Assembly (NCBI GenBank): GCA_964016885.1
Contig: OZ024743.1
Span: forward strand, 91,636,001-91,700,000
Origin: Eledone cirrhosa
Taxonomy: Eukaryota
Direction of reading: 5' to 3'
Length of the DNA: 64,000 nt
Below are positions 33,481 to 35,343 of the stretch, in pieces (position 1 is the first letter of the stretch; each line of letters opens with the position of its first letter). Position numbers and translations under genes: made by a program. Below the pieces are notes generated by a model that made no database searches, was not told where the DNA came from, and saw only the letters and a list, made by a program, of their open reading frames with translations.

Positions 33481-34067
33481 TTCGTTGCAGCATATGCAAG
33501 AAGGAATCTAAGTCCTTAGAAGGGCTAACAGGTCACGTTCGTGCCACCCACGCATGAGAAAAAGGGTTCTACAGGACTAGAACTGTTTCATTTAGTTCTA
33601 CTCGTGTACAAGCCATTTCTATATTAATTTTTGTTGTTCTCACCCTACTAATGTAATGAGTACCTTATTTACTGTGGTTACCCCCGATTTAACTCGGGAT
33701 CTCTCTCTCTCTCTCTCTCTCTCCCTCTCTCTCTCTCTCTCTCTCTCTCTCTCTCTCTCTCTCTCTCTCTCTCTCTATATATATATATATATATATATAT
33801 ATATATATATATATATATATATATAACAATATATTTAGAAACACACAGATACATGCGGACACACACATATATACATGAATGCATCCGCACCCAACTGTGA
33901 GTTAAGGGTGCCAACTTCACCGATGTTGCTCAATGAATGACTGGGACAGACCAATTCAGTTGAACCAGACTGAACCAGTATCAGAGTTAAAAATACATTA
34001 TGAAGAGAGAAGAAACATTTAGATATAATTAGTAATAAAAAGTATCATACCTAAGCTGCTCCTAAAT

Positions 34068-34155
34068 TCCTCGACTACGTAGTTTCGTGGCATAAACAAA
34101 AACAATATATCAAAGATATAGAGTCCTTGCGAGGTCTGCCGACTTATCAAGAGGA
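34068..34155 (-). ncRNA. Hammerhead ribozyme, U3-A8 core variant
   Basis: Reverse complement of the 34864-34951 motif. Confidence 0.75.
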
Positions 34156-34270
34156 TACCTCATTTTACTAGTCTCAAGAACGTTATATCGCGTGACTATC
34201 TCCCCCTCCGCCTTTTGGGATTCTTTCTCACGCCGTGTAGACGCGTTCTTGAGACTAGTAAAATGAGGTA

Positions 34271-34358
34271 TCCTCTTGATAAGTCGGCAGACCTCGCAAG
34301 GACTCTATATCTTTGATATATTGTTTTTGTTTATGCCACGAAACTATGTAGTCGAGGA
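34271..34358 (+). ncRNA. Hammerhead ribozyme, U3-A8 core variant
   Basis: TCCTC-TTGATAA-GTcGGCA...TGCCAC-GAAAC-TATGTA-GTC-GAGGA. Confidence 0.75.
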
Positions 34359-34863
34359 ATTTAGGAGCAGCTTAGGTATGATACTTTTTATTACTAATTA
34401 TATCTAAATGTTTCTTCTCTCTTCATAATGTATTTTTAACTCTGATACTGGTTCAGTCTGGTTCAACTGAATTGGTCTGTCCCAGTCATTCATTGAGCAA
34501 CATCGGTGAAGTTGGCACCCTTAACTCACAGTTGGGTGCGGATGCATTCATGTATATATGTGTGTGTCCGCATGTATCTGTGTGTTTCTAAATATATTGT
34601 TAATAACTCCCTCTGGTCGAGCAATCTTTGAAGTGTGGGGACAACTGGAAAGCTTCCATTACTCATACTTTTCGCCTTCTTCACCACCTCTTCTACGGCC
34701 TCGATATGAATACCCCCTCCGCCTCCGTGGTATTTTCTTCGTGGTTATAAGAGGCTTAGCTCTGTTTCTCGACCGTTATGTCGCGTGACTATCTCCCCCT
34801 CCGCCTTTTGGGATTCTTTCTCACGCCGTGTAGACGCGTTCTTGAGACTAGTAAAATGAGGTA

Positions 34864-34951
34864 TCCTCTTGATAAGTCGGCAGACCTCGCAAGGACTCTA
34901 TATCTTTGATATATTGTTTTTGTTTATGCCACGAAACTACGTAGTCGAGGA
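34864..34951 (+). ncRNA. Hammerhead ribozyme, U3-A8 core variant
   Basis: TCCTC-TTGATAA-GTcGGCA...TGCCAC-GAAAC-TACGTA-GTC-GAGGA. Palindromic stem/loop III (ACTACGTAGT), GUC triplet. Confidence 0.8.
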
Positions 34952-35343
34952 ATTTAGGAGCAGCTTAGGTATGATACTTTTTATTACTAATTATATCTAA
35001 ATGTTTCTTCTCTCTTCATAATGTATATATATATATATATATATATATATATATATATATATATATATATATATATATATATATATATATATATATATAC
35101 GAGGGTCAGGTGAACATTTCGTACGGTTGATGTCTGTGCTGTGAAATCTGTGCGTGGAATGCTCAGCTCCTTACCAATAAATTTCGTGTTCTGGCTGTTA
35201 CATTGATCGAACAAACGGAACAGGCAGAGTTGAAACCGACGGAGGCCCAAGGTTCGCTTATCTTTTCATCTTTTTTAAATTAATATGAAGTGTTGGTATA
35301 TATATATATATATATATATATATATATATATATATATATATAT

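Follow-up and report, generated by a model that had tools for sequence, protein, structure and literature searches.

A young family of non-coding tandem units with a predicted hammerhead and PLE-type insertion anatomy in Eledone cirrhosa

Contig OZ024743.1 of Eledone cirrhosa carries, within the 64,000-nt stretch of DNA analysed here (hereafter the window), a short tandem whose two repeats each contain a hammerhead-like motif. Is this a retrozyme, and how would a unit that encodes no protein reach new sites? The original prediction had described the locus accurately in most respects. The two hammerheads on the plus strand lie in a 593-nt tandem (direct repeat 34171–34438/34764–35031, spacing 593), an inverted partial copy with a third motif stands before them (arms 33824–34182/34244–34602, 359 nt, 100% complementary), and (TA)n tracts flank both sides. 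The element is non-coding, as had been noted: no ORF of at least 100 aa overlaps it, and the longest stop-free frame of the circularised unit is 87 aa. Its limits needed correction. One earlier boundary was moved, as the direct arm begins at 34181 and overlaps the inverted arm by 2 nt, and the hammerheads bound the unit but not the element, whose right arm extends ~80 nt and whose left arm extends 249 nt beyond the cleavage site. The features are collected in Table 1, where position 1 of the unit is the base following the predicted cleavage site.

Table 1. Features of the element and its flanks (positions of the window)
Feature	Position	Strand	Comment
Left (TA)n target tract	33776..33825	.	Simple-repeat tract
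Inverted arm, unit positions 484-593 then 1-249	33824..34182	-	Ends at long initiation site, ~245 nt past cleavage site
Sub-segment of inverted arm	33824..33992	-	
Hammerhead 3, U3-A8 core	34068..34155	-	Predicted cut between 34073 and 34072
Direct arm: partial unit truncated at its 5' end, a full unit and 80 nt	34181..35026	+	Ends at short initiation site
Hammerhead 1	34271..34358	+	Stem I 34271-75/34354-58, core UUGAUAA 34276-82, GAAA 34340-43, GUC 34351-53
593-nt monomer	34354..34946	+	Bounded by two predicted cleavage sites
Two GC-box-like C-rich motifs (34713, 34795)	34713..34805	+	Upstream of hammerhead; possible internal promoter
Hammerhead 2, family-typical	34864..34951	+	Perfect 10-nt stem III palindrome; predicted cut after 34946
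Right (TA)n target tract	35024..35099	.	Simple-repeat tract

All three motifs contain a stem I of UCCUC/GAGGA, the predicted UUGAUAA (U3-A8) core, GAAA, a palindromic stem III and a GUC that ends at 34353 and 34946 (plus strand) or 34073 (minus strand). In each, stem II contains a single bulged C and is extended by a long hairpin, and hammerhead 1 carries a single C>U change in its stem III palindrome (position 34347). A strict hammerhead descriptor gave four hits in the window, these three and one at 58203, and none in each of 200 shuffles. The expectation that standard searches would miss the motif was borne out by Rfam, which returned 19 matches at E ≤ 1 between 32000 and 37000, none of them a hammerhead. 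The U3-A8 core itself is not a novelty; it is in print for PLE hammerheads (PMC4209133) and is also carried by a PLE of this genome, PLE-A (see below). More short hammerhead-like motifs with U3-A8 cores and different stems were seen at L063:519-2171, and several U3-A8 families must therefore be present in the genome. For the giant squid, 235 Rfam hammerheads have been reported (PMC6962438).

The window holds a second insertion of the same family at 58044–58697 (minus strand, 97.7% identical, unit positions 22–593 plus 1–80), with one hammerhead and (TA)n at its 3' end. Several other repeats surround the two insertions. Inverted repeats of 151 nt (97%), separated by 409 nt that include a SINE piece, lie at 35377–36087 and are either MITE-like or another inverted insertion. 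A 57-bp minisatellite (45492–46653, 20 copies at 98%) is apparently derived from a local SINE. A broken non-LTR element with an RT domain occupies 48998–52488 (minus strand), with a related piece at 14940–16087 (minus strand); we take its C-terminal region to resemble a restriction-like endonuclease. Finally, an RT frame of 617 aa with C2H2 zinc fingers, presumably RTE-like, is found at 53956–55809 (plus strand).

The genome-wide family that had been anticipated was readily found. A 23-mer spanning stem I and the core has 5,950 exact hits in the 3.0-Gb genome, while its reversed control has 0 hits; a canonical-core version likewise gave 0 genome matches. The best family matches show 97–100% identity and are spread across many contigs, the copies are ~98% alike, and the units measure 590–595 nt, within the published range of 51–972 bp for non-LTR retrozymes. 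For the variant analyses we used a young set of 88 loci, a small part of the family, drawn from the best matches and, on contig C1, from the first 100 hits to the pattern. It was reduced from 94 loci by dropping overlapping or duplicate loci, segments below 94.5% identity and the second copy of the L070 segmental duplicate. The count of ends used 89 loci and left out four more. An older set comprises 39 loci of a 597-nt subfamily (~85% identical to the young unit), one near-duplicate being excluded.

Judged on its copies, the 593-nt unit is a member of a young, non-coding family with PLE-type insertion anatomy. The features of non-LTR retrozymes are present: one type I hammerhead per unit, short head-to-tail units, many copies, no coding capacity, a G+C content below 50% (248/593) and a highly self-paired predicted circle (−171 versus −137 ± 7 kcal/mol; z −5.2, 0/60 shuffles). 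So are those of PLE-mobilised elements, namely partial tandem, 5' truncation, inverted arm, tail and microsatellite target. By all of these sequence criteria the family works like a non-LTR retrozyme with putative cleavage and a putative circle. The number and dispersal of the copies, the way they are inserted and their conserved core support the earlier view of a non-autonomous, PLE-mobilised, hammerhead-bearing family.

Conservation concentrated on the core was found as predicted. In the 39 older loci, which were picked by whole-unit similarity, mismatches were seen at 6/807 for 11 core positions versus 1892/38042 elsewhere. Fixed variants fell on 0/11 core positions in each subfamily, versus 101/586 and 68/582 positions outside, the young count being affected by the partial choice of that set by the hammerhead motif. 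One stem I pair of the older loci is U-A, U.G and C-G in 10, 13 and 13 copies, respectively. Taken together, the core mismatches and the changes in this pair indicate that the predicted ribozyme is under constraint. When the first 270 nt were compared over 14 copies with RNAalifold, 1/68 pairs had a two-sided change, that is, little covariation in that part. The predicted active hammerhead fold lies at most 1.1 kcal/mol from the local optimum, and the palindrome duplex was calculated at −12.9 kcal/mol. Two published observations count against the ribozyme step: minimal PLE hammerheads cleaved poorly (PMC4209133), and in Xenopus 8/9 predicted dimers were without cleavage (10.64898/2026.07.22.740005).

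The ends of the insertions fall at two places. The 89 loci have 136 outer 3' ends, of which 69 are at ~80, 63 at ~245 and four elsewhere, and in 44/47 two-arm insertions an ~80 end is paired with an ~245 end. TA adjoins 128/136 ends, where target-site duplications are hidden by (TA)n. In the older subfamily the ends are at 84 and 252, so that subfamilies ~15% apart retain the same unit and the same ends. Since the 3' ends are not at the cleavage site, the RT would have to cross the ribozyme junction, which is identical in 173/175 cases. The longest arm is 2,918 nt. Arms longer than one unit make up 76/136 overall and 35/76 in the unbiased set, the best-match loci being biased to long arms. An apparent accumulation of 5' ends where the ribozyme would cut (21/136 over all loci, p = 0.005) was reduced to 8/76 in the unbiased set (p = 0.31) and is ascribed to selection bias; several apparent 5' ends at position 1 were chaining artefacts. 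In loci L004, L013 and L020, the arms with a 5' end at the cleavage junction show small first-base changes, as if the RT had stumbled there, but these are too few to test.

These ends could also be produced by PLE-type copying of uncleaved linear multimer transcripts from a few homogeneous master arrays, with the hammerhead as a passenger or acting elsewhere and with no circle involved. Perfect junctions and internal starts fit an uncleaved multimer equally well, and in the unbiased sample 5' ends do not accumulate at the cut site. Hammerhead cleavage is also dispensable for insertion in vitro: hammerhead mutants of the one PLE that has been reconstituted were inserted as usual, and none of the RNA-seq reads stopped at the site of cleavage (PMC11167929). 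We nevertheless consider this linear route unlikely. It can only lose units with each cycle, yet arms reach almost 3 kb; core and stems are conserved; and in a multimer each unit would acquire its A>G changes separately, which is at odds with the variants described next.

Units of one insertion, in both orientations, share one haplotype. Over the 88 loci, within-locus divergence is 0.41% between copies of the same orientation and 0.49% between opposite arms, compared with 1.93% between loci. Of the substitutions, 201 are fixed across all copies of a locus, six are partly shared and 162 are found in a single copy. Locus L066 illustrates this with four private substitutions in all 7–8 copies of both arms, and mixed haplotypes occur in a few loci, e.g., L004.

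The fixed variants also have a characteristic direction. A>G (on the ribozyme strand) accounts for 24/62 distinct fixed variants versus 8/162 single-copy variants (p = 2e-9). Per site, A>G was fixed at 24/132, T>C at 12/213 (p = 4e-4) and C>T at 8/132 (p = 0.004); as C>T is so low, tolerance of G.U pairs does not explain the excess. Four-gamete conflicts were seen in 67/143 pairs with one A>G site versus 7/78 pairs without, from which it follows that A>G sites recur while the other sites are tree-like. At six A>G hot spots, G is fixed in 63/64 multi-copy loci, and the older subfamily has A at all six in an alignment read by eye. The A>G change thus recurs across loci and yet is present in all units at once, which points to one RNA monomer that was read several times. 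The older subfamily has a weaker A>G skew (18/143 versus 13/214, p = 0.036), and no A>G skew was seen in a PLE-A ORF control (15/692 versus 18/454; coding region picked for intact frames).

Could these changes have been made at the DNA level? Retrotransposed copies might be shaped into arrays and shared haplotypes by unequal crossing over and gene conversion, with A>G arising from G.U-tolerant selection or RT error. The few mixed haplotypes and the fact that A.U to G.U leaves stems intact fit such an origin. C>T is equally pair-preserving, though, and is not enriched, and changes made by RT or in DNA should start in single units, which 1/64 does at the hot spots. Change at the DNA level should further affect both strands alike, a symmetry seen in the single-copy variants (A>G 8, T>C 19), and the 162 single-copy differences have been left unhomogenised. 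We regard this explanation as very unlikely.

The variant pattern fits ADAR editing of one monomer followed by repeated reading. A 5' G precedes 1/24 changed A versus 27/108 other A (p = 0.026 uncorrected, one of four neighbour tests), and avoidance of a 5' G is a shared ADAR feature (PMC5625713); in the older subfamily this context is weaker (5' G at 3/18). The 3' neighbour is G at 9/24 changed A and A at 1/24. This G-rich, A-poor context matches the G-preferring group described in PMC5625713, unlike invertebrate hyper-edited sites, which prefer a 3' A according to the same source, and in that respect it counts against editing. So do two results of our own: the 29 private fixed variants taken alone hold nine A>G and nine T>C (p = 0.34), and changed A is not commoner in paired positions (paired 16/83, unpaired 8/49). 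RNA editing has been named as one possible cause of heterogeneity in mussel circles (PMC7229834). A literature search that covered few subscription journals found no report of editing footprints in retrozyme or PLE insertions.

The protein that copies the unit would have to come from elsewhere, and two active PLE families were compared with it. PLE-A has a 3,545-nt unit with 784-aa frames and a U3-A8 hammerhead of similar build to that of the family, and it is a possible source of this hammerhead type. As a parent or partner it was rejected: it has no homology to the unit, one end class at ~100 nt (55/61) and no stagger. A 5'-truncated PLE-A relative with a GIY-YIG-type endonuclease and an inverted 5' arm lies in (TA)n at 60270–62710 of the window, with U3-A8 hammerheads near 60648 (minus strand) and 62520 (plus strand); another such hammerhead is found at ~2844 (plus strand).

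The second family, PLE-B, was found via an insertion at L155:1121-3050. In this single TA-flanked insertion, a retrozyme arm terminates at the short site of the family and a PLE-B 3' part terminates at the long site of PLE-B, with 30 nt of retrozyme and an endonuclease fragment of a third PLE family between them. Three RNAs in one insertion suggest template switching during one integration event. PLE-B is an active family of 4.19-kb RT-endonuclease elements, seen in locus L211 (G000:C3:131176200-131181700) as a copy broken in two places. Its 3' end is young (97–98% identity), and more than 50 of 137 scored matches lie in frames of at least 820 aa. Its ends are 172 nt apart, with inverted arms at the short site in 7/8 cases, and its hammerhead-like core CCGAAGA (U4C) is retained in diverged copies. 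Unit and PLE-B show no DNA homology (best E 0.23), and the similarity of the PLE-B tail to the 5' part of the unit is not above that of shuffles (64/300). End geometry and the single chimera in L155 make PLE-B the best candidate partner.

The absence of sequence homology to either PLE also bears on whether the unit is merely a pLTR, a reading that the original prediction had set against its own and that does not hold for these two families. The unit could still be the pLTR region of an unfound autonomous PLE, its tandems being by-products of truncated copies. Xenopus retrozymes are homologous to PLE pLTRs (10.64898/2026.07.22.740005), and other GIY-YIG families exist in this genome, including the third PLE family seen in L155. 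Against this, the arms run from unit to unit with no intervening ORF, and the subfamilies have kept unit and ends despite their divergence. PLE protein matches occur nearby in 23/131 family loci, and 19 of these lie 21–1,713 nt outside the element, separated from it mostly by TA or another simple repeat where the spacers were printed; in two of the remaining four loci, L155 and L176, the unit does not continue into the ORF in its own sense. An origin as a pLTR is, in our judgement, highly improbable.

We consider it probable that the family is a non-LTR retrozyme mobilised in trans by a PLE protein, most likely that of PLE-B, from an edited and probably circular monomer. A tandem copy would first be transcribed. 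Two hammerheads, probably pairing via the stem III palindrome, would then release a 590–595-nt monomer to be closed by a host ligase, excision and closure being inferred from known retrozymes. The self-paired RNA would be edited A-to-I at preferred sites, as the variant pattern implies. The PLE protein may nick both strands of a (TA)n tract and, on each strand, prime cDNA at a different UA-rich site within the unit, the two sites being ~165 nt apart. Each RT would go backwards through the ribozyme junction for up to ~5 turns, and the two truncated cDNAs would be joined head to head, which would give a partial tandem and an inverted arm with a single haplotype. A fuller version can be put forward tentatively, as a possibility of not quite even weight: in each insertion a pair of PLE RTs begin at points separated by ~165 nt and roll round a single circular RNA that ADAR has edited, host A-to-I editing is in this way carried over into DNA, where it is the chief source of heritable change in the family and even feeds the stem I covariation, and the partner PLE shares geometry and not sequence.

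Public sequencing runs were searched for the unit. A search of RNA-seq for the circle junction is undecisive, as genomic tandems carry the same junction. A closed assembly cycle gives a contig of the unit length plus 30 at word length 31. Runs X4 and X5 (other organisms, kind of run unrecorded) yielded one contig each, of 621 and 620 nt at a depth of ~8, both with the full unit and with indels that make units of 591 and 590. These lengths are a weak hint of a closed cycle, and collapsed trace DNA could give the same. Runs X1 and X6 have TA loose ends at both end sites, like genomic copies. Another loose end in run X1 was considered as a parent junction and dropped when its flank proved single-copy.

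How does the family compare with known systems? Non-LTR retrozymes and their circles have been described (PMC7229834), and a PLE origin has been argued for them (10.64898/2026.07.22.740005). Like the animal non-LTR retrozymes of these two sources, the family has a non-coding tandem unit with one type I hammerhead, a GC content below 50% and a self-paired predicted circle, and coexists with PLEs. It differs from them in its U3-A8 core with extended stem II, in a unit longer than the 170–400 nt reported for invertebrate retrozymes, and in partial tandems that are short and dispersed, carry inverted arms and have ends at fixed, paired positions. The missing homology to the pLTRs of PLE-A and PLE-B and the recurrent sense-strand A>G changes also set it apart, and its expression and self-cleavage are putative. 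With PLE hammerheads, including Cercyon of S. mansoni (PMC4209133), it shares the U3-A8 covariation, the G10.1-C11.1 pair, a palindromic helix III suited to dimers and a long helix II. Unlike those hammerheads, its motif sits in an ORF-less tandem unit, is nearly invariant and has a short but complete helix III. Circular templates were proposed there for PLE copies of more than unit length.

The insertions resemble those of PLEs (PMC8557442; PMC11167929, on Poseidon of Anolis) in their 5' truncation, partial tandems, inverted 5' copy and (TA)n or AT-rich targets. In vitro, two internal RT starts downstream of the hammerhead define the PLE tail (PMC11167929), and the family likewise has two end sites past the hammerhead, with a tail at one end. 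The family differs from these PLEs in a tail of ~165 nt rather than 30–40 nt, in short and long ends that pair almost strictly on opposite arms, and in encoding no RT or endonuclease. PLEs of Chlamys such as MRC1 (PMC8557442) are also non-autonomous, multicopy and head-to-tail. They share 3' sequence with autonomous partners and are mostly without hammerheads, while our family has a hammerhead and no detected sequence in common with a partner. In its paired 165-nt stagger, single-template signal, A>G footprint and sequence-unrelated candidate partner, the family goes beyond the known kind.

That animal retrozymes borrow PLE enzymes to reverse-transcribe RNA circles, and move in this way, is a long-standing proposal. 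The support given in the cited work consists of co-occurrence, homology and RNA blots, with no trace of the template in insertions. The recurrent A>G changes act as natural molecular barcodes that report the number of RNA monomers behind each insertion. The family further offers a short RNA, a pair of mapped start sites and a candidate enzyme of which intact copies exist, so that one in vitro reaction could address the circle model, what the hammerhead does and how the inverted arms and tails of PLEs arise. If editing is confirmed, there would be a route from RNA editing to heritable DNA change in a mobile element. If the fuller version given above is true, thousands of insertions in the genome of Eledone cirrhosa would each record the copying of one retrozyme circle.
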